Assembly: GCF_963921235.1 (NCBI RefSeq)
Contig: NC_086108.1
Span: 88,104,001-88,168,000 of the forward strand
Reading direction: 5' to 3'
Length of the DNA: 64,000 nucleotides
Source of the DNA: Mobula hypostoma
Lineage: Eukaryota
The notes beneath the pieces were generated by a model that ran no database searches, had not been told where the DNA came from, and saw only the letters and a program-made list of their open reading frames with translations. Within the stretch, counting starts at the first letter, position 1. Each line of letters begins with the position of its first letter. Both the position numbers and the translations under genes were made by a program. Below, one piece after another: positions 3,653 to 62,361 of this stretch.

Positions 3653-3799
3653 CTAAGAAAACAAGATGTCACACACTGTGAGACATCGCTCCAGAATTTC
3701 ATCAAGAAAAATGTAAATAGGAACAAGGAGACAGAATCAGAAAGGCAAATGTACAATTATTTAGAAATGCAGGAATCGGCTGAAATTAGAAATCTAAGG

Positions 3800-4090
3800 T
3801 TGACTCCAATTCCTCTTTCAGCCCTTTACCTTTTCCATTTATCACCTCCCAGCTTTTCACGTCACTCCACCCACCGCACCCATCCACCCACTTTCTCCCT
3901 CACTGCTTTCACCTATCACCTGCCAGCTTGTACTCCTTCCCCTTCCCCCACCTCCTTATTCGGGCTTCTTCCCCCTTCCAGTCCCGATGAAGGGTCTCGG
4001 CCCAAGACGCCGACTCTTTATTCCCCTCTATAGACACTGCCTAACCAGCTGCGTTCCTCCAGCATTTTGTGTACGTTGCTAAGATTCCTG
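3800..4090 (+). mobile_element. Penelope-like pseudo-LTR fragment
   Basis: Pyrimidine-rich tract then cagtcccgatgaagggtctcggccc...ctgcgttcctccagcatttt, shared with the other PLE ends here. Confidence 0.75.
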
Positions 4091-4389: not shown

Positions 4390-4500
4390 CATTGCATTTC
4401 AACATGACATCCTCGTTTAACAAATTCTGCTTCTGCACTTGAAGGAAAGCAGTTTCGCCCCTGTTCACTGTGGTTGTGAGTCTGTTAGGGTAGAAATCAG
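4390..4500 (-). CDS. TIE1: TIE1 exon 3 (N-half of Ig2)
   Basis: Acceptor ctctgactttccag, donor gtgagt; 111 nt, phase 1-1; ADFYPNRLTTTVNRGETAFLQVQKQNLLNEDVMLKCN aligns without gaps to recalled TIE1 AHLLPDKVTHTVNKGDTAVLSARVHKEKQTDVIWKSN. Confidence 0.92.
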
Positions 4501-5851
4501 CTGGAAAGTCAGAGCAAAACAACTTTAATACCAAAGTAACGAGTGGAAAGTTTAGAGAATGACAAGTTTCATTTCATATATGTTTTAACACTACAAAATC
4601 TACCAAGATATTTCAACGGAGCAATATCAAATCTGGCACAGTCACAGAATGAAATAACATTGAATCAGACCAAAAGCTTGTTGAAAAGATGGGTTCAAGA
4701 GGCAGCCTCAAAAAGAGGAAGGAGAGATACAGAGGTTAAGAAGTGCATTCTACAATTTAGGGCCATAATGTTCGAAGGAAAGGCCATTGATGAAGGACTC
4801 TGGGAAAGATCAAGAGCTTGAAAGGGAAGGAAGTATTTTGGTTTGAGCACTGAAGAAGATAACAGGCTTTGTGGGGGTGGTTAGTCTATTGAGGAACTTG
4901 AAAAGTGAAGATTTTTAATTCGAGTAGGTGTTTAATGAGAACCAAATATAGATCATGAAGCTTGGAGTAGAAGAGCGACCACAATGGTATTGAAGATGTT
5001 GTCAGGTAGGGAAATTTCAGAAGCTTCCAAATACTGACACATTCAAAGAATGTGAGGGGTAGTTACAAAATGTAAAACAACTTGAGGCGGAGAAGGAGTT
5101 AGCAAATATAGACACCATTAGTGAGGGAGGCTCGGGGATTACCTGCAATGGACAGATGATTTGTAGAATTTAGGAAAATATCAAGCATTGGCACACCTAC
5201 AAATGGGATTAGGAAATTCCCAGACACACCTCATGAAGTCAAAGAAACCTAGCAACAGTCATTAGACAGTTTACCAAACAATGACCTACCTCATGGTGGA
5301 ATTACCAAACACTGGCATATTAGCAATGAAGGTGATGGAGAAATGAACACAGCAACATTTTGTGATAGAGTTACAGAGCTAACTAGTCATGGGGGTAGGG
5401 AGTTACCACACACTGGTACACCTAGCAAAAGAAGTGCGGAAGTTTGCAAACACAGGCTCTGCTGGTTATATTGGTTAATCTTTTACCAAACGTAGTTAGT
5501 GATGTCCTCGGTTTGCTTATGAAATTTGGTTCTGAAGAAGTTGTTCAACAAAATCTGAAAGTATTATAGTGCTGCCTCCTCACCGTTCTAGTGACATATG
5601 ATCCTGACCTTTGGTACTGTCTCTATGGAGTTTGCACATTCTCTCTTTGATTATGTTTATTATGGTTGTTCATGTTTCTTTGCATATCCCAAAGATATGT
5701 CCACTGTAAATGACCCCTTAATGGGGACATGTAGCAGCAAAATGAAAGAGCAGCTTTACGGCATATGAGGCAAAATAAGGCAGGAGTGCAAGGAAAGACT
5801 GAGACTGATGGGATTGCTCTGCTGGGAACCGGAACAAAGCAGATGTAGAAC

Positions 5852-6217
5852 AATTTGACAAGGTGCCACACCTCAGGCTGCTTAACAAGATACAAGCCCA
5901 TGGTATTACAGGAAAGACTCCAGCATGGATAAAGCAGTGGCTGATTGGCTGGAGGCAAAGAGTGGGAATGAAGGGAGCCTTTTCTGGCTGGCTGCTGGTG
6001 ACTTTAGTGTTCCACAGAGGTCTGGTTGGGACCAATTCTTTTTATATTGTAAGTCAATGATTTGGATGATGGAATTGATGGCTTTTTTTGCAAAGTTTGC
6101 AGATGATACGAAGATAGGTAGAGGGGCAGGTAGTTTTGTGAAAGTAGAGAGGCTACAGAAGGACTTAGATTAGGAGAATAGACAAAAAAATGGCAGATGG
6201 AATACAGTGTTGGAACA
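5852..6217 (+). mobile_element. CR1 LINE RT fragment
   Basis: Translates to VPHLRLLNKIQAHGI...RQRVG and KFADDTKIG (CR1 RT). Confidence 0.85.
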
Positions 6218-7336
6218 ATGCACAACACGCTGGAGGAACTCAGGTTGGGCAGCATCCGTGGAAATGAACAGTCAACGTTTCGGGCTGAGACCCTTCGTCA
6301 GGACTGAAGAGGGAGGGGGCAGGGGCCCTATAAAGAAGGTGGGGGGGAGGGTGGGAAGGAGAAGGCTGGTAGGTGCCAGGTGAAAAACCAGTAAGGGGAA
6401 AGATCAAGGGGTGGGGGAGGGGATAGGCAGGAAAGGTGAAGAAGGAATAGGGGAAATCACAATGGGTAGTAGAAGGAGGCAGAACCATGAGGGAGGTATT
6501 AGGCAGCTGGAGGAGGGGACAGAGTGAAACTGGGATGGGGGAAGGGAGGGGAAGGGAATTACCGGAAGTTGGAGAATTCAATGTTCATTCCAGGGGCTGG
6601 AGACTATCCAGATGGTACATGAGGTGTTGCTCCTCCAACCTGAGTTTGGCCTCATCATGGCAGTACAGGAGGCCATGTATGGACATATCTGAATGGGAAT
6701 GTGAAGTAGAGTTGAAGTGGGTGGCAACCCGGATGCTCCCAGGATGAGGCTTTCTGTTCCAGGACATCTCAAATGTCCTCTTTCTTCGTGGTTTCCCTTC
6801 TAACGTCATCAATGATGCCCTCACCCGCATCTCCTCCATTTCCCGCACTTCGGCCCTCACCCCATCCTCCCGTCACCACAACAGGGACAGAGTTCCCCTT
6901 GTCCTCAACTACCACCCCACCGGCCTCTGGATCCAGCACATTATCCTTCGCAACTTCTGACACCTTCAACAGGACCCCACCACTAAGCACATCTTTCCCT
7001 CTCTACCCAGCTCCACTTTCTGCAGGGATCGTTCCCTCTGCGACTCCTGGTCCACACGTCCCTCTCCATGGATCTCCCACCCACCACTTATCCCTGTAAG
7101 CGCAAGTGCTCTACCTGTCCCTACACCTCCTCCCATGCCACCATTCAGGGCCCCAAACAGTCCTTCCAGGTGAGGCAACACTTCACTTGTGAGCCTTTTG
7201 GGGTCATTTATTGCATCCGGTGCTCCCGGTGCGGCCTCCTCTACATCAGTGAGACCCGACGCAGATTGGGGGACCGCTTCATCGAGCACCTCCGCTCCGT
7301 CCGCCACAACAGATAGGATCTCCCAGTTGCCACCCA
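6218..7336. mobile_element. Penelope-like element with internal inversion
   Basis: Minus part 6218-6730: pLTR + GIY-YIG C-terminus (VATHFNSTSHSHSDMSIHGLL...RLEEQHL); plus part 6733-7336: CEPFGVIYCIRCSRCGLLYISETRRRLGDRFIEH. Confidence 0.9.
6269..6306 (-). ncRNA. Minimal hammerhead ribozyme motif (PLE pLTR), intact core
   Basis: cagtc-CTGACGA-a-gggt ctca gccc-GAAA-c-GTT-gactg: stem I cagtc/gactg, stem II gggt/gccc, NUH = GUU. Confidence 0.75.
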
Positions 7337-32169: not shown

Positions 32170-32430
32170 ATTGGTTGTAGGTAGAAGATGATGACACATC
32201 ACAATGGCAGTGAAGGCAGAAGAAGGCTTCAGCAGTGAAGAGTTGAGTCATCTTGCATTCCATGCCATTGAACCTTGACCTTGACACTGTCAAGGACCGT
32301 GTGATGGCCGGCCATACATCGGCCTCTCCACATTAAACAAAGTCACACACAGGTGTTCTCCGATAAGGGAATTGACCCAACTCCTTTGGAGAGCGTTATA
32401 CTCGACTCAAGTGCTCACACTGCTATACTC
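32170..32430 (+). mobile_element. 5'-truncated relative of the RTE-derived short element at 50733-51170
   Basis: agaagatgatgacacatcacaatggcagtgaagg and ttaaacaaagtc..cacagg.gttctcc match the reverse complement of 50840-51010. Confidence 0.7.
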
Positions 32431-36660: not shown

Positions 36661-39600
36661 AGAAACATGGAAAACCTAAAGCACAATACAGGCCCTTTGG
36701 CCCACAAAGTTGTGCTGAACATGTCCCTGCCTTAGAAATTACTAGGCTTACCCATAGCCCTCTATTTTTCTAAGCTCCATGTACCTATCCAAAAGTCTCT
36801 TAAAAGACCCTATTGTATCTGCCTCCACCACCATTGCCAGCAGCCCATTCCACGCACTCACCACTCTCTGCGTAAAAAACTGAACTCTGACATCTTCTCT
36901 GTACCTACTTCCCAGCACCTTAAACCTCTGCCCTCTTGTGGCAACCATTTCAGCCCTGGGACAAAGCCTCTGACTAGCCACATGATCAATGCCCCTCATC
37001 ATCTTATACACCTCTATTAGGTTACCTCTCATCCTCCGTCGCTCCAAGGAGAAAAGGCCAAGTTCACTCCACCTGTTTTCATAAGGCATACTCCTCAATC
37101 AAAGCAACATCCTTGAAAGTCTCCTCTGCACCCTTTCTATAGTTTTCACATCCTTCCTGTAATGAGGCGACCAGAACCGAGCACAAGTGGGTCTGACCAG
37201 GGTCCTATACATCTGTAACATTACCTTTTGGCTCCTAAATTCAATTCCACAATTGATGGAGGCCAATATACCGTATGCCTTCTTAACCACAGAGTCAACC
37301 TGCGCAGCTGCTTTGAGTGTCCTATGGACTCAGACCCCAAGATCCCTCTGATCCTCCACACTGCCAAAAGTCTTACCATTAATGCTGTATTCTGCCACCG
37401 TATTTGCTATACTTATCTGGGTTGAACTCCATCTGCCACTTCTCAGCCCAGTTTTGCATCCTATCAATGTTCCGCTGCAACCTCTAACAGCCCTCCACAC
37501 TATTCACAACACCGTCAACCTTTGTGTCATCAGCAAATTTACTAACCCATCCCTCCACTTCCTCATCCAGCTCTTTTATAAAAATCATGAAGAGTAAGGG
37601 TCCCAGAACAGATCCCTGGGGCACACCACTGGTCACCGACCTCCATGCAGAATACGACCAATCTACAACCACTCTTTGCCTTCTGTGAGACAAAGCAAGG
37701 TCCACTTGGATCCCATGCCTCCTTACTTTCTCAATAAGCCTTGCATGGGGTACATTATCAAATACCCTGCTGAAATCCATATACACTACATCTACTGCTC
37801 TTCCTTCATCAATGTGTTTGGTGACATCCTCAAGAAATTCAATTAGGCTCGAAAGGCATGACCTGCCCTTGACAAAGCCATGATGACTATTCCTAATCAT
37901 ATTATACCTCTCCAAATGTTCATAAATCCTGCCTCTCAGGATCTTCTCCATCAACTTACCAGCCACTGAAGTAAGACTTACTGGTCTATAATTTCCTGGG
38001 CTATCCCTACTCCCTTTCTTCAATAAGGGAACAACATCCGCAATCCTCCAATCCCCCGGAAACTCTCCCGTCCCCATTGATGATGCAAAGATCATCTCTA
38101 GAGGCTCAGAAATCTCCTCCCTCACTTCCCACAGTAGCCTGAGGTACATCTCATCCAGTCCCGGCAACTTATCCAACTTGATGCCTTCCAAAAGCTCCAG
38201 CACATCCACTTTCTTAATATCTAAATGCTCAAGCTTTTCAGTCCACTGCAAGTCATTACTACAATTACCAAGATCCTTTTCCATAGTGAATACTGAAGTG
38301 AAGTATTCATTAAGTACCTCTGCTATATCCTCCAGTTCCATACGCACTTTCCCACTGTCACACTTGATAGGTCCTATTCTTTTACGTCTTATCCTCTTGC
38401 TCTTCACATACTTGTAGAATGTCTTGGGGTTTTCCTTAATCCTGCCTGCCAAGGCCTTCTCATAGCCTCTTCTGGCTCTCCTAATTTCCTTCTTAAACTC
38501 CTTCCTGGTAGCCTTATAATCTTCTGGATCTCTAACATTACCTAGCTCTCTGAACCTTTCGTAAGCTTTTCTTTTCTTCTTGACTAGATTTACTACAGCC
38601 TTTGTACAACACAGTTCCTGTACTCTACCATAACTTCCCTGTCTCATCGGAACGTACCTATGCAGAACTCCACACAAATATCCCCTGAACATTTGCCACA
38701 TTTCTTCCATACTTTTCCCTGAGAACATCTGTTCCCAATTTAAGTTCCTGCCTGATAGCCTCATAATTCCGCTTACTCCAATTATACGCTTTTCTAACTC
38801 GTCTGTTCCTACCTCTCTCCAATGCTATTGTAAAGGAGATGGAATTATGATCACTATATCCAAAATCCTCTCCCACTGAGAGATCTGGCACCTGACCAGG
38901 TTCATTTCCCAACACCAAATCAAATACAGTCTCTTCTCTTGTATGCTTATCTACATATTGTGTCAGGAAACCTTCCTGAACACACCTAACAAACTCCACC
39001 CCATCTAAACCCCTTGCTCTAGGGAGATGCCAATCTATATTTGGGAAATTAAAATCTCCCATCATGACAACTCTGTTATTATTACACCTTTCCAGGATCT
39101 ATTTCCCTATCGGCTCCTCGATATCCTTGTTACTATTGGGTGGCCTATAAAAAACACCCAGTAGAGTTATTGACCCCTTCCTGTTCCTAACCTCCACCAA
39201 CAGAGACTCCATAGACAATCCCTCCATGGCATCCATCTTTTCTGCAGCCGTGACACTATCTCTGATCGACAGTGCCACACCCCCACCTCTTTTGCCTCCC
39301 TCCCTGTCCTTTCTGAAACATCTAAAACCTGGCACTCAAGTAACCATTCCTGTCCCTGAGCCATCCAAGTCTCTGTAATAGCCACCACATCATAGCTCCA
39401 AGTACTGATCCACGCTCTAAGCTCATCCACTTTGTTCACAATACTCCTTGCATTAAAATAGACACATCTCAAACCATCAGTCTGAGCGCTTCCCTTCTCT
39501 ATCATCTGCCTATCTTCCCTCACACACTGCCTCCAAGCTTTCTCTACTTGTGAGCCAACCGTCTCTTCCCCAGCCTCTTCAGTTCGGTTCCCAGCCCCCC

Positions 39601-45163: not shown

Positions 45164-47785
45164 AACAAGAGAAAATCTGCAGATGCTGGAAATCCGAGCG
45201 ACACACACAAAATGCTGGAGGAGCTCAGCAGGCCAGGCAGCATCTATAGAAAAAAGTAAAGTCAACGTTTAGGGCCGAAACCCTTCGGCAGGACTGGAGA
45301 GAAAAAGCTGAGGATTAGAGTTAAAAGGTGGGGGGAGGGGAGAGGGAACCAGCAGATGATAGGTGAAACCTGGATGGAAAGGGATGAAATAAAGAACTGG
45401 GAAGTTGATTGATGAGATGACGTGAGAGAAGGAAAAGGGGATGGAAAATGGAAGGGGCGTGTGTTGGGGGGCATTACGGGAAGTTTGAGAAATTGATGTT
45501 CATGCCATCAGGTTGGAGGCTACCCAAATGGAATATAAGGTGTTGTTCCTCCAACCTAAGTGTGGCCTCATCGCGACAGTGGAGGACGCCATGGATGGAC
45601 ATATCGGAATGGGAATGGGAAGTGGAATTAAAATGGGTGGCCTCTGGGATATCCCGCTGGTTCTGGCAGATAGAGAGTAGATGCTCAGTGAAGCACCTAT
45701 CACTCCACCAGCCTTTGCGTCCAGCACATAATTCTCTGAAACGTCCACCACCTCCAATGGGATCCCACAACCAAACACATCTTTCCCTCCCCCCACTTTC
45801 TGCTTTCCGCAGGGATCGTTCCTGTATGACTCGCTTGTCCATTCGTCTCTCCTCACTGATCTCCCTCCTGGCACTTACCCTTGCAAGCCGAACAAGCACT
45901 ACACCTCCTCCCTCACTACCATTCAGTGCCCTTCACCTGTGAGTCTGTTGGGGTTACTTACTGTGTTTGGTGCTCCCAGTGTGGCCTTCTGTATATTGAT
46001 AAGACCTGATGTAGAATGGGAGACCGTTTCCCCGAGCATCTATGCTCCGTCTGCCAGAACCAGCGGGATTTCCCAGAGGCCACACATTTTAATTCCAATT
46101 CCCATTCCCATTCTGATATGTTCATCCATGTCCTAGAAAATCATAGATTTTATGTAGAAATGATGGAATTAAGAGTAGGTGGCGTCCACAAAAGAACGGA
46201 CCATGACAGGGATCAGTCCTGGCACCTCTACTATTTAACGTTTACAAAAATGACCAACCAACCTTTCCTAACACATGCAGGTTTATCTATGCAGTTGACC
46301 TATACATAGCAACACAAGCTAACTCCTTCCAAGAAGCTGAAGTACGACTTCCAGCAGTCCTCGAAGCAATGAAGCAGTATTATGAAAAATGGTCTCTGAA
46401 CCCAAATCCATCAAAAACTCAAGTGTGTGCGTTCCAGCTGAGGAATCGAGAAGCAGCTCAGAAATGCAAGATCTTCTGATGTGGGAAGGAGCTCAAACAC
46501 CATCCAACTCTAGTTTACCTGGGTGTGACACTGGATAGGACGCTCTCATTTGCCACCCACATCCAAAAACTCCGAGGGAAAGTTAGCTCTCGCAATTCTC
46601 TCTTGAAAAAATTAGAATACTGTGCACCTGTGTGGGGCAGATCAGCACACGCGAAGAAAATAGACCCGTTGCTTAATGAAGTCTGCCCAATAATCACGGG
46701 CACACTGCGCCCCACACTCACTAACATCATTTACAGACTTGCAGGCATTGCTCCCCCAGAGATCCAAAGACACACTACAACAAAAATTGAAAAAGGTAAA
46801 CAGAACTCGGATCCACGGTGCCCACTACATCATCATGTGCCAGTTTCCAACCGCCTAAAATCGAGAAAAAGCTTTGCTACAGTGGGGGAACTACCGCACG
46901 GAACATCCCCCCAAACATACAGGATTGACCTCTGGCAACAAACAGAAGCCAAAACCCCACCAAACAATACAGTGCAAGACCCCACAGGAATGCTACCAGA
47001 CGGGGCACTGCTTGACAGACGGAAGTGGTGCACCCTTGGCAGAGCGAGAGCGGGAGTTTGTAGGACGGGAGACAATATGGTGAAGTGCGGTTTAAAGACC
47101 AGAGAATCCTGTGAGTGTGGCGAAAGGGTGCAGAACATTGAACACGTTCTGTGCAACTGCCCACTCTCACCTGATTTAGCTGACACTGACCTGCTCAATA
47201 TCAACCAGACAATACCAGAGTGGCTGGCTGTCTGGTGTGACAAGCTATGATGATGATCCATGGCTTCCTCCACTGTCGTGATGAGGCCACACTTAGGCTG
47301 GAGGAACGACAGCTTATATTCTGTTCTGATGGCATGAACATAGATTTCTCAAACTTCCGATAAATGCCACCCCTCCCCCGCCATTCTCTAATCCTATTTC
47401 CCTCTCCCTCCTATCTTCTTACTTGCCCATAACCTCTCTCTAGTGCTTCTCCTCATTCCTTTTCTTCCATGATCTTCTACCCTTTCCTATCTGACTCCCC
47501 CTTCCCTTGCCCTTGATTTCTTTCATTGATTTCTCAAACTTCTGGTAATGCCCCCTCTCCTTTTCCATTTCCCATCCCCTTTTCCCTCTCTCACCTCATC
47601 TCACCACTCAGCATCCCAGCTCTTTATTTCATCCCTCGCCCTCCAGGTTTCACCTATCACCTGGTGGTTTTCTCTCCCCTCTCCCCACCTTTTAACTCTG
47701 CTCCTCAGCTTTTTCCCTCCGGTCCTGCCGAAGGGTTTTGTTCTGAAATGTTGACTGTACTTTTTCCATAGATGCCACCTGGCTT
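45164..47785. mobile_element. Inverted Penelope-like element interrupted by a Vingi-like LINE
   Basis: Minus pLTR + GIY-YIG end at 45164-45696; plus-strand PLE at 45697-46130 resumes at 47256 and ends in a pLTR. Confidence 0.85.
46135..47255 (+). mobile_element. Vingi/Ingi-group LINE 3' fragment
   Basis: YLGVTLDRTLSF, EYCAPVWGRSAHAKKID..LNE.C.IITGTLRPT, LAGIAPP, C-terminal CECG...EHVLCNC; (TGA)n tail; atccatg duplicated at 46124-46130 and 47256-47262. Confidence 0.75.
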
Positions 47786-49020: not shown

Positions 49021-49955
49021 CAGACATGAGGAAATCTGCAGATGCTGGAAATCCAAGCAACACACACAAAAATTGCTGGTGAATGCAGCAGGCCAGGCAG
49101 CATCTCTAGGAGGTGGTACAGTCGACATTTCGTGTCGGGACCCTTCGTCTGGACTAACTGAAAGAAGAGATAGTAAGAGATTTGAAAGTGGGAGGAGGAG
49201 GGGGAGATCTGAAATGATAGGAGAAGACAGGAGGGGAGGGATGGATCTAAGAGCTGGAGAAGGGAGAGGATCATGGGACAGGAAGCCTGGGGAGAAGGAG
49301 AACGGGGTAGTGGAGCCTGGAGGGTGGAGAGCAGGCAAGGAGTTATAGTCCGCCAGAGAAAGCAGGATCTCCCAGTGGCCAAACATTTTAATTCCAATTC
49401 CCATTCCCATTCTGATATGTCTATCCACGGCCTCCTCTACTGTCAAGGTGAAGCCACACTCAAGTTGGAGGAACAACACCTTGTATTCTGTCTGGGTAGC
49501 CTCCAACCTGATGGTGTGAATATTGACTTTTCTAACTTCTGTTAATGCCCCTCCTCCCCTTCACACCCCATCCCTTATTTATTTATTTAATATATTTTTA
49601 ATATATTTTTTATTTTCCCCCCCTTTTTCCCTCTCTCTCTTTTTTCTCTCTCTGTCCCTCTCACTATAACTCCTTGCCTGCTCTCCACCCTCAAGGCTCC
49701 CCTCCCCCCTTCTCTTTCTCCCCAGGCTTCCTGTCCCATGATCCTCTCCCTTCTCCAGCTCTTAGCTCCATCCCTCCCCCTCCTGTCTTCTCCTATCATT
49801 TTGTATCTCCCCCTCCCCCTCCCACTTTCAAATCTCTTTCTATCTCTTCTTTCAGTTAGCCCTGACGAAGGGTCCCGGACCAAAACGTCGACTGTACCTC
49901 TTCCTATAGATGCTGCCTGGCCTGCTGCGTTCGCCAGCATTTTGTGTGTGTGTTG
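49021..49955. mobile_element. Penelope-like insertion with inverted pLTRs and 12-bp TSD
   Basis: cttataaacgtg at 49009-49020 and 49956-49967; arms about 49055-49349 and 49662-49955 are reverse complements; central DLPVAKHFNSNSHSHSDMSIHGLL. Confidence 0.92.
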
Positions 49956-50732
49956 CTTATAAACGTGGTCTGTTTGACAGTTCAGCCATTGTTACTTCTT
50001 TTACCATTGGTTAATCACTCCCACAGAGACTGAGGCATACACCAAAAGCATAAATTACCTTTCAACTAACCACATGTTAATGATTCCTTACCCTGAATAA
50101 AACCAATAAGAAAGTTACTTCTTAATTGTTTCACTTGATATATCTGAATGTAGTTAATATTGTTTAAAAAAGAGAGCAAGCATAAAAACAGTAACTCAAA
50201 GCCAGTCAGCTTAAGTCTTGTTACTGAAAATACCTTTAGAAACACTAATCCGTGACCTGCTAAGTCACCTGCATGAAAAGGATTGTTAGCAAGCCTGCCT
50301 GGATTTATTAAAAGCAAATAATTTTTAACCAGTTTGATAGATTTTTAGATGAGCTATTGGGGTTGAGTACAATGCAATAGATTTGGTTTATATGGACCAA
50401 AAAGGATTTTGACATAATGCTGCACAATAGATTTATCAACAAACTGCAGAGTTATCAATCGATTTATCAATAAGCTGTAGAACATTGCATAAAAGGAATA
50501 TAGATAACATAGTAATGAAGTTAGATGAGTAACAGATAAGAAAACGTTGCAATGTGGGATTGTATTTCAGACTGGTGGAAGATGAGTGGTGCTGTTTCTC
50601 AGAGATTGTTGTTGCTTTTTGTTCTCTATTAACACCTGGACCGAGGAGACCCCAAATTTCTAAATTTTGTAGATGATAAAAAGTGTTGACAGTATTACGA
50701 ACTGCAAGGGGAATAGTGATACACTACAGCAG

Positions 50733-51170
50733 AATGGCACTAATGCGATCACCCTGGTTGAGTGTAATGTTCTCCTAAGGAGCTGTCTGCGGGTGGGTCC
50801 TCATCTAGCTGTAGAGGTCATTTTGGGACTCGCACATTAATGGAGAACTCCTGTGCAGGACTTTGTTTAACATGGGGAGGATGAAGCATGGGAAATGACC
50901 TCACAGCCTTTGACAGATCCAGTTGCACGGAATACAGGATGATTGAAGACCCTTCACCACAGCTGTTTTCCTCCACCTTCACTGCCGTTGTGATGTGTCA
51001 TCATCTTCTGCCAGCTCCACCATTGAGGTCTTGGTTAGATCACAGTTGGTCTGGAACCTCCCTCTTGATCTTACCACTATGGCTGGCCCCTACTCCAGAC
51101 GGTATTGCTCTTGGAATCTCAGGGACTCTCAAGCCTCTCCACCGTGACAAGGTGCCAACCCCTGGAGAAG
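50733..51170 (-). mobile_element. RTE-derived non-autonomous short element
   Basis: 5' end cttctcc...caccttgtcacggtggagaggcttg typical of RTE/Ingi-type 5' termini; 3' part reads CESQNDLYS*MRTH, like the RTE C-terminal RIGLxSHxRTH; imperfect TSD acagcag 50726-50732 / acagtag 51171-51177. Confidence 0.7.
51097..51170 (-). ncRNA. HDV-like ribozyme fold (probably decayed)
   Basis: P1 CTTCTCC/GGAGAGG, P3 ACC/GGT with loop TTGTCAC, P4 CTTG-a-GAGTC/GATTC-CAAG, J4/2 AG-C-AAT, imperfect P2 GGTTGGC/ACCGTCT. Confidence 0.6.
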
Positions 51171-51926
51171 ACAGTAGGACATAAGCAGACTGGTGTAATG
51201 GGCAGATGCCAAGCAGGTGAAGCCTAATGCAGAGGACTGTGAAGTGATGCATTTTGTAGGTAAAGTAGCAGAGAAATACTGAATAAATGGTTTATGAAGA
51301 TAGAAATAAATAGCAGAATATGTGCATAAATCATTGAAAATTGTCAAGCAGGCTCAGAAGGTGGTTGTTACTGTCAGAGGGTATACAGACGTTTGTGCAT
51401 CATCTATTGATGCATGGAGTATAAGAGCAATTGTTTTGCTAGGCCAGTCTAGCCTCAAAAGAGGCATTGTGTCAGGTCTGATTGCCATTTCAAAAGAAGA
51501 TATGTAGGCATTTGGGGAGATCTAGAAAAGATTCACAGGATCAGACCCTGGATTGAGGGACTGTAATCACAAGGACAGGAGCGGAACAGTTTTCCTTGGA
51601 GAAGGGCGAAAAAACAATATAAAATAATGAGGTTCTGGACAGAGAATATAAGTAGGAAGTTGTTCCTTTTAGTGGAGGAGGTCAACAATTTGAAGTCACA
51701 GGTATATAACCAAAGGAGAAGAGAATAAGAGTGTCATAAGCAAAAATACTTTTAGGTACTATGTGGAATCTGGAATCTAGGAACTAGAATGCAATGCCTA
51801 AAGATGTGATGGAGGGAGGTTCCACTGTATTCAAGAGCGAACTGAATAAATACATGGTGGAGAAAAATTTGCAGGGTTCCAGTAAGGGTTTGCTAGGTGG
51901 AATTAGAAAATTGCTCCTGTGGAGAG

Positions 51927-54495: not shown

Positions 54496-54722
54496 ACACA
54501 CATCAAAGTTGCTGGTGAACGCAGCAGGCCAGGCAGCATCTCTAAGAAGAGGTACAGTTGACGTTTCGGGCCGAGACCCTTCGGTTAGTCCTGACGAAGG
54601 GTCTCGGCCCGAAACATCGACTGTACCTCTTCCTAGAGGTGCTGCCTGGCCTGCTGCGTTCACCAACAACTTTGATGTGTGTTGCTTGAATTTCCAACAT
54701 CTGCAGAATTCCTGTTGTTCGC
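54496..54722. mobile_element. Fold-back PLE mini-insertion with 13-bp TSD
   Basis: gtatagtcagatt at 54483-54495 and 54723-54735; 88-nt inverted arms 54496-54583 and 54595-54682. Confidence 0.92.
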
Positions 54723-60670: not shown

Positions 60671-62361
60671 TGTGACAATGGGGGGCATTGGGAACTGACC
60701 CAAATGCAAGACACAGACACTGAAGTACAAGGAACAGAACTTGAATAGAGTTGGGATGTGACAGGATACAGACAAGGAGCAGAGACAAGAACGCAGACTT
60801 GGGCTTGGACCCTGAGCCAGAGACTGGACAAGGACCCTGAACCTGGATCTTGCCTCGGGCTCCGGCCCCAGATCTAGGCAAGGACATGACATGACTGCAG
60901 GACTGGAGGCTGGGGTCTTGAGGCTTGAGCTTGGAGACAGGCTGTAGCAGCGACACCCGATGCATCAACATCACGTCTGCTAAGAGAGCCGCACGTCCCT
61001 GAACCAGAACCCTACGCCGGAGATCTCGGGAAGTGCCAGGCTTTTCTGCTGCAATGCTCCTTGGTGTTTGAGCAGCAGCCATCCACGTACGCCACGGACA
61101 AGTCTAAGATAGCTTACATTATGGGATTGTTGTGAGGAAATGCTTTAGCGTGGGCCACCGTGATTTGAGATAATCAGCCAGAGATCTGCTCTTCCTTGCC
61201 CACCTTCATCTCAGAAATAAGGAAAGTTTTTGAACATCCTGTCCGCGGTAAAGATGCTGCTAAGTGGCTACTCATCCTCCATTAAGGCTCACGCAGTGTT
61301 GCCGAATACTCCATGGTGTTCTGGCCGACTCGGGCTGGAATGATGAGGCACTCCAGGAGGTATTCCGGCAAGGCCCCTGTGACAAGGTAAAGGACGAGTT
61401 GGCGGCTAGGGATGACACTAACAGCCTGGATTCATTGATCTCCCTAGCCACCAGGCTGGACAACCGACTCCGAGAACATCAGAGGGAGAGAACTGGTCGT
61501 CCAACTCCTTTGGCCACCCCACGGCACGCTTTACCATCTACTACCAGTCCTAACCTCTCTCCTCCTCCTGCTTCTAGAATAGCATCTGGCCTGGCTGTTT
61601 CCACCACCCCGGGAGAGGAACCAATGCAGCTGGGACGGAGCCGTCTTTCTCTCACAGAGCGTCTCCGGAGATTAAGAGCAGGGGATTGTTTCTATTGCGG
61701 TCAGTCTGGCCATTTTCATGCTACCTGTTCCTTTCGGCCAAAAGGGAAGGCTCACCAGTAGAAAGGGGGACCTTGGTGAGTCAGACCACATTCCCTTCTG
61801 TCCCCCAATCCCGGATGCAAATCCAACCCACTGTAAGCTACAACCAACAGACCCTGTCCTTGTCTGCCTTGATAGGTTCCTGTGCTGAGGGGAATCTGTT
61901 GGATGAAAATCTAGCTTCCTAAGCCAGAATTCCTTGGGAGCCGTTGAGTACCCCTCTGGAAGCCTGGGCACTGGACAGAAGACTTCTGGCCTGAGTCACT
62001 CACTGTACCCCACCAATGTCTTTGGTTCTCTCTGGGAACCATCAGGAACAGGTACAATTTAATTTAATCTCCTCTCCTCAAGCTCCAATAATTCTTGGGT
62101 ACCCCTGGTTAAGCCGCCATAACCCTTACATTGATTGGTCCATCCTTGTGAAATACTTCGTTGTCTTGTCCGATTAGAACCGTTAGTTCTAAGTTTAGTT
62201 CCAAGTTCAGCTCTAGTTTCCAGATAGTCCCTGTAAATCCCGTCTCCTTGTCAAGATTCCTCCGGGTTGCTGTTCTACATCTACATCTACGCCAGCATCC
62301 CCAATTCAGTCGACTTGCCGGTGTCCTGCACTTGGGTTCTCCTCAGTCACCCCGTGCAACA
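60671..62361 (+). mobile_element. Ty3/Gypsy (Sushi/PEG10-like) gag-protease remnant between LTR pieces
   Basis: [42 protein letters not shown] knuckle [14 protein letters not shown], protease-like ALIGSCAEGN and ILGYPWL..HNP.IDW; TG...CA termini with TSD ttcaa at 60666-60670 and 62362-62366. Confidence 0.88.

Follow-up and report, generated by a model that had tools for sequence, protein, structure and literature searches.

RTE-clade retrotransposons have been described that carry HDV-like ribozymes at their 5' ends (Ruminski et al. 2011, as cited in PMC5786205, PMC6765202 and PMC3774820). According to the citing papers, these ribozymes form a double pseudoknot at the exact 5' end of the RTE, cleave at the junction and are proposed to release the element from a co-transcript, and the locus that we analysed shares the fold, the position and the predicted cleavage site. 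The mosquito RTE ribozyme drz-Agam-2-1 carries an extra domain in J1/2 (PMC4908430), whereas the copy studied here (copy A) has a short J1/2 and an extra domain in P4. Ribozymes kept by short non-autonomous derivatives are represented by Pr77/L1TcRz of L1Tc and NARTc (PMC3185411) and by the R2 SIDEs (cited in PMC6765202), which resemble our element in the cut at C1 and the single-pair P1.1; in contrast to the 134-150 bases and RTE affiliation found here, Pr77 has 77 bases, a short P4 and a place in the Ingi/L1Tc group (PMC3185411). The bipartite build itself, a 5' UTR joined to a 3' end with no ORF and no tRNA head, is that of RTESINE1/2, WALLSI3, RTE-N2_Lch and RTE1-N1_LA (Kojima 2018, PMC5786205). 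Kojima proposed a ribozyme to explain why bipartite elements keep their true 5' end (PMC5786205); the middle and tail motifs of the copy A family were not found in the searched parts of the supplement of that paper.

The window, by which we mean the whole 64-kb stretch of DNA that was analysed, is repeat-rich animal DNA with no tRNA and no Rfam match, and we take its repeats to resemble those of cartilaginous fish. An earlier note on this DNA had described a 438-base RTE-derived element headed by a compact HDV-like fold of 74 bases. We drew the evidence on the family from contigs of sequencing runs, from a second copy in the window (copy B) and from relatives found by pattern, which amounted to at least 87 loci in metagenome contigs and one locus in viral contigs. 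The search pattern fixed P3, L3 and the 3' strand of P1, and the P1 5' strand was not part of it. Exact-pattern scans with window-specific motifs gave no match in viral, metagenome or genome contigs. The element and its surroundings are laid out as follows.

50733-51170 (3' end approximate), minus strand: bipartite non-autonomous RTE-type element, copy A (run-contig depth and alignment with the relative L077)
50838-51036, minus strand: rest of the RTE 5' UTR, common to copy B (local alignment with L077 4394-4178, score 117, 0/200 shuffles)
50733-50837, minus strand: RTE 3' part, with a remnant of the last ORF codons (about 50837-50775), the 3' UTR and a decayed tail (L077 match and translation)
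51171-51177, minus strand: candidate target-site duplication, 5' copy, weak (6/7 identical to 50732-50726)
50726-50732, minus strand: candidate target-site duplication, 3' copy, weak (extended to 7/8 in the orthologue from run X5)
32174-32421, plus strand: copy B, a 5'-truncated member of the same family in the short junction form, without ribozyme (alignment)

We aligned 3,235 contigs of an own-species run (X1, which may be the source sample) on 781 bases covering copy A. Depth, which is not a copy number, rose from about 8-12 in the flanks to hundreds to thousands between bins 50722-50748 and 51154-51180, that is, to hundreds to thousands of times flank depth, and runs X5, X9 and X13 gave the same profile. 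The length of 438 bases is plausible, but run-contig depth places the 3' end of copy A only to about 50733-50748. At the other end, depth in the own species fell from 744 to 11.7 in the next bin, which locates the boundary only within bin 51154-51180. That P1 begins at the element boundary was supported by two multi-copy families of relatives, in which the boundary lies at P1 base 1 or 2: conservation dropped to background, from 100% to 50% just upstream of P1 in one (8 flanks) and from 86% to 43% one base inside P1 in the other (28 flanks). The 6/7 target duplication was absent from the 25 best duplication candidates, and the 3' tail is decayed; a better-scoring 13-base duplication (51185 / 50581) was rejected since the shared depth stops at about 50733 and about 51180. 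In X5 both copy A junctions, and in X9 the 5' one, were crossed by contigs with about 2-3% differences, so the insertion predates the split of the organisms concerned. Copy B was 68% identical to copy A over 184 columns (nhmmer E 4e-23).

Other retrotransposon-like features were found in the window. A 256-codon open frame at 46480-47250 (plus strand) had no Pfam match and presumably resembles the C-terminal part of an Ingi/Vingi-type retrotransposon protein; we considered a link between copy A and this frame and dropped it, as there was no DNA match and no tblastn match to L077. A 446-codon reverse-transcriptase frame at 37412-38824 (minus strand) was weakly matched by RTE proteins, and we assume it to be of the CR1 type. 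Near-adjacent inverted repeats of Penelope-like ends lie at 49055-49958 and 54496-54682, with arms of 182 and 117 bases at 90-95% and one 88-base pair only 11 bases apart. The frames at 61264-61922 presumably resemble the end of gag, zinc knuckle included, and the beginning of pol of an LTR retrotransposon.

The bipartite reading of copy A was confirmed by the full-length relative L077, a decayed element with endonuclease and reverse-transcriptase remnants. Its protein pieces matched the RTE-type loci L055 (which we take to be Rex3/Expander-like) and L023, and not the CR1-like or Ingi-like frames of the window. From 51170 to 50840, copy A aligned with the L077 5' UTR (228/329 aligned bases identical), past which it jumps about 3.2 kb to the last ORF codons and 3' UTR. 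The best L077 match of this 3' part (995-929, ORF end and 3' UTR) was modest, with a score of 45 reached by 2/200 shuffles, and neither the tail alone nor the tail of copy B matched L077 significantly. We looked for a Pol III head in copy A and found no tRNA, no Rfam head and no B box, with one stray A-box-like match. On this comparison, copy A is the 5' UTR of an RTE joined to its 3' end, with the ORF deleted.

Copy A does not have the common junction. In copy B, as in most copies, the joint lies about 45-50 bases further along, and most copies lack these bases; the common junction links 50784/50788 to 50837, with 62-89 loose ends at 50837 in three runs, and few other contigs lie over 50803-50829. 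We weighed the possibility that copy A is a one-off internal deletion of a full-length RTE, made by a template jump during reverse transcription or a later deletion, and not a member of a mobilised short subfamily. The extra ORF-end bases (about 45-50) would fit this, the few contigs over 50803-50829 could derive from the 3' ends of full-length elements, and of the other contigs seen, the only one to span this region (X13 record 9, with 5 differences in 173) may be the orthologue. The 5' break point at about 50838 is, however, common to copy A, copy B and the common form. This speaks for descent from one short ancestor or for a site prone to breakage, and we consider a one-off origin doubtful.

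The ribozyme that we predict at the head of copy A is composed of the following parts, with HDV numbering (U20, G25, C75) after PMC13635239.

51037-51170, minus strand: HDV-like ribozyme, revised extent 134 bases, predicted cut 5' of C51170 (model R1 and pair counts)
51164-51170, minus strand: P1 5' strand (7/7 pairs, supported by relatives)
51154-51161, minus strand: P2 5' strand, after a 2-base J1/2 (distal partner in relatives)
51141-51153, minus strand: P3, 51153-51151 with 51143-51141, and L3, 51150-51144 (sequence)
51134-51140, minus strand: P1 3' strand (sequence pairing)
51132-51133, minus strand: J1/4, in which C51133 pairs with G51148 (P1.1, by covariation) and U51132 likely faces U51149 (by analogy, PMC13635239)
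51052-51131, minus strand: long branched P4 arm, inside which C51107 pairs with G51070 (covarying helices)
51046-51051, minus strand: J4/2 with the candidate catalytic C51049 in C-N-A-A (conservation)
51037-51045, minus strand: P2 3' strand with one bulged base, 51044 (pair counts)

The 5' half of the fold stands as first described. CTTCTCC at 51170-51164 forms 7/7 pairs with 51140-51134, one of them G-U, and the ACC/GGT of P3 closing a 7-base loop is present. The head alone was not beyond chance in the window copy as a single sequence (folding z = 0.46), and a P1+P3 descriptor gave two matches in the window against 0-3 in each of ten shuffles. Among the relatives listed, full 7/7 pairing of P1 recurred in 55/87 rows compared to 4 at a control position, and in 21/33 dereplicated heads compared to 2/33, and this recurrence indicates that the P1 of the window is real. 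P1 counts from a 24-row table (A4) were left unused, as they are biased by the choice of starts. As in HDV-like ribozymes, P1 has 6-7 bp and begins at the first base.

To place P2, we took the seven bases before P3 and sought their best partner in each head; among the relatives listed, 73/90 rows were long enough, yielding 31 heads. In 21/31 heads the P2 5' strand found its best partner 95-140 bases further downstream, and in 1/31 at the site proposed in the earlier note. For the window's own row the search picked a distal site that is not homologous, which we attribute to the weak P2 of the window copy. In the relatives, the distal strand follows a conserved C-N-A-A junction; as P2 in copy A closes at 51045-51037 directly after C-N-A-A, the candidate catalytic C is 51049. 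The own-family P2 score at the distal site was 13.0, against 8.9 +/- 3.1 across families, compared to 8.0 against 7.4 +/- 2.8 at the site first proposed. In some heads the P2 5' strand also seemed by eye to pair with the 5' strand of P4; this partner scored best in 2/31, and the idea was dropped.

The revised structure was examined on the 31 dereplicated heads (A2), where 83.7% of cells were paired (28-44% in slid controls), 0/500 shuffles reached its pairing or covariation, and 14/19 pairs had changed on both sides, including all 8 pairs of P2. For A4 (24 rows) we left out the window and ten A2 heads that were truncated, deleted, minimal or without P1 (L004, L024, L038, L057, L066, L070, L078, L080, L086 and L088), together with the candidates L049, L076 and L081, and added L006, L065, L069 and L084. 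A model-free helix scan of A4 ranked P2 first, with at least two Watson-Crick types in 7/7 pairs, and the full structure with the branched P4 was 87.1% paired, with 26/34 pairs changed on both sides. The shuffle tests are inflated by the shared ancestry of the relatives, so the counts are not probabilities, and P3, L3 and the P1 3' strand cannot covary in these tests because the search pattern fixed them. The P1.1 that was called not obvious proved to be one covarying pair, G51148-C51133, formed by the third loop base and the base after P1, both left free by the pattern: 70 rows had G-C, 18 A-U, 2 G-U and none A-C, making 88/90 Watson-Crick. A tested HDV-like ribozyme also has a P1.1 of one Watson-Crick and one pyrimidine pair (PMC13635239). 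The equivalent of C51049 was C in 25/31 rows of A2, and in A4 the junction read C in 23, A in 24 and A in 24 of 24 rows with N free; the G25-equivalent was G in 24/31 rows of A2, at a position where the pattern allowed G or A only. At the family level, P2 stacks on a 3-bp P3 and its 3' strand comes directly after J4/2, P1.1 lies between L3 and J1/4, and the candidate catalytic C is first in J4/2, followed by N-A, as in HDV-like ribozymes.

The 3' half of the compact fold did not hold up in the same tests. Its P2 was 50% paired on the 31 aligned heads, with one pair broken in 25/31, and its structure as a whole was 69.7% paired and was reached by 64, 275, 135, 432 and 156 of 500 shuffles on five measures, the 156/500 being its covariation score. 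The covariation check that the earlier note had suggested for P1-P4, run on 31 related heads, thus favoured the longer fold (0/500) over the P2 and P4 originally drawn (64/500). The 9-bp hairpin and C51107 do exist: the hairpin forms in the window's own minimum-energy single-strand fold, pairing in its first four pairs reaches 92%, mostly through G-U, and C51107 is about as conserved as C51049 (C in 29/31 rows of A2 against 25/31). They are, on our reading, neither P4 nor the catalytic base. C51107 pairs with G51070 inside the branched P4 arm, as C-G in 22/24 rows of A4, the segment that holds it is absent from viral minimal forms, and the compact fold was no better than shuffles on any of the five measures. 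We regard it as highly improbable that the 74-base fold with C51107 is the active ribozyme. The corrected fold moves the base to be mutated from 51107 to 51049 and doubles the length of the assay construct: a C-to-U change at 51107 would alter the wrong base for a control, the candidate catalytic base being 51049, and a 74-base construct would be inadequate because J4/2 and the 3' strand of P2 are missing from it.

An independent measure came from model R1, which was built from A4 with the window left out. R1 matched the window at 51171-51033 with 73 bits (E about 2e-19, rough), the next match having 12 bits, and this extent, with the P2 3' strand at 51045-51037, replaces the 74-base size. The head of copy A is thus predicted to be an HDV-like ribozyme of about 134 bases. 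Copy B gave no match to R1. Energy-based folding was less informative: on A2, RNAalifold, which cannot represent pseudoknots, recovered the basal stem of P4 and P3 with a competing extension, and not P2. With the P1 5' strand removed, energy alone gave the revised structure in the L084 head, and P2 did not form in the L065 and L055 heads or the window copy. Rfam, at its gathering threshold, reported no ribozyme family in the window, L055, L065, L077 or L088. A twister reading of the P4 arm (Perere-3 type) was set aside, as there was no Rfam twister match and the covarying helices stand in HDV order.

Copy A itself is damaged. C51049 is intact; at the G25-equivalent position, where relatives mostly have G, copy A has A51145 and so lacks the U20-G25 combination, and no cleavage could be observed within 60 s when a tested HDV-like ribozyme carried G25A (PMC13635239). 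This weighs against the activity of copy A, not against the family. P2 of copy A keeps 6/8 pairs, 4 of them G-U, with the top two broken, and its P4 side hairpin has lost about 11-12 bases between 51092 and 51091 relative to L077 and R1; the alignments of other copies stop at 51089-51090, near this deletion. In own-species contigs, the majority letters differ from copy A at 51045, 51044 and 51037, and the majority letters of the runs restore the top C-G and end G-C pairs of P2. No other letter was found at 51155 or 51145 in any run among the rows listed, so the whole family may have the G-G mismatch that lies near the P2 top. With an A at the G25 position, a broken P2 top and a deletion of about 12 bases, copy A is likely dead and likely no longer cuts, in agreement with the earlier suspicion that this copy had lost function.

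Taken together, copy A is very probably a decayed, short bipartite RTE element headed by a predicted 134-base HDV-like ribozyme, for which we infer cleavage; the fold, RTE origin, bipartite build, high copy number and damage come from comparison of sequences. In intact ancestors, the ribozyme likely cut the element RNA free at base 1, 5' of C51170, with C51049 presumably acting as general acid together with a Mg ion. The RNA would have been supplied by read-through transcription and released from host transcripts, and an RTE endonuclease/reverse transcriptase acting in trans would have copied it via the 3' tail.

An alternative is that the ribozyme is genuine in the parent RTE and a passenger in the short family. 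The family would then have spread from a Pol II promoter inside the 5' UTR, and the head would have been retained for promoter function or for protein binding. Pr77 combines promoter and ribozyme activity (PMC3185411), and Kojima expects Pol II transcription of bipartite LINEs (PMC5786205). Head depth is about one-eighth of the peak at 50992-51018, copy B is without a head, and no correcting letter was seen at 51155 among the rows listed. Low head depth is, however, also expected from 5' truncation and from copy A's own deletion. Moreover, C-A-A-A is retained by the majority letters of four runs, which also repair P2 at its top and end pairs, and no alternative letter was found at 51049 among the rows listed. 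We consider the passenger explanation unlikely.

The relatives place this head on RTE elements. Of 39 loci with at least 800 bases downstream, 24 showed same-strand similarity to RTE-type endonuclease/reverse transcriptase (3 of these being queries or a near-identical copy), and relatives gave Pfam RVT_1 and endonuclease matches. L077, the closest relative among those listed, has T at the catalytic position. In the supplement of PMC5786205, the consensus 5' ends of RTE-3_Crp and RTE-7_PM match the ribozyme head by eye, and the elephant element RTE1-N1_LA (PMC5786205, by eye) has P3 changed to AGT/ACT and a P2 strand right after C-TAA. By eye in the same supplement, Dong-2_Lch and R4-1B_AC of the R4 clade carry the same 5' stretch as RTE heads, which suggests head exchange, and the tRNA-headed SINE2-1_EC carries the stretch with P1 and P3 apparently damaged. 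Two ribozyme heads stand in tandem, 158 bases apart, in L001 (804-984, minus strand).

In the viral locus L088, R1 made four 61-base matches that skip about 92 model positions, the whole of the P4 arm. These copies keep P1, P2, P3 and a C-N-R-A junction, with compensatory changes in P1, P2 and P3 (one in P3). They lie on the minus strand at 4482-4542, 5999-6060, 6453-6513 and 3743-3804, four within 3 kb and mostly between genes, on a viral contig with prokaryotic-virus-like frames, and each copy follows a T run. L088 contained no tRNA, and Rfam missed its ribozyme copies. The minimal delta-like/theta ribozymes (bioRxiv 10.1101/2023.06.13.544163) have the same build as these P4-less copies; they differ from the window ribozyme, which has a long P4, and the L088 copies have no tRNA nearby. 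A looser viral pattern gave mostly chance matches, with 1/60 distinct sequences passing the P1 and P2 test. A recurring viral motif in L091, L105, L104, L094 and about 60 of at least 120 loci has 7/7 P1 pairs and the same P3, L3 and J1/4; it has only 2-3/6 P2 pairs in the tested register, and no tRNA was found in the 8 loci tested.

A broader and more tentative proposal is that an undescribed delta ribozyme subclass, with a C1-G start, a purine-pyrimidine P1.1, a bulged P2 and a P4 arm of about 95 bases with a three-way junction, heads RTEs across many animals, is shared with R4/Dong heads and has relatives without P4 in viruses of prokaryotes. The conserved P4 arm might then be a second functional module, such as a 5' binding site for an RTE protein or a translation-start element. 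No description of a branched-P4 RTE ribozyme was found in the literature searched, which did not include Ruminski et al. 2011, the paper most likely to contain one; as evidence of novelty this is weak.

Ribozyme-headed RTEs and bipartite RTEs are already known, and the copy A locus itself changes little. RNA gene-writing systems also employ RTE 5' UTRs as templates (PMC13708176), and a map of the helices would aid the interpretation of UTR variants there. For the family, the motif heads many RTE families and is missed by Rfam, which makes Kojima's idea directly testable with model R1: bipartite RTEs would be expected to keep the ribozyme, and Pol III SINEs that incorporate the same 5' UTR to break it.
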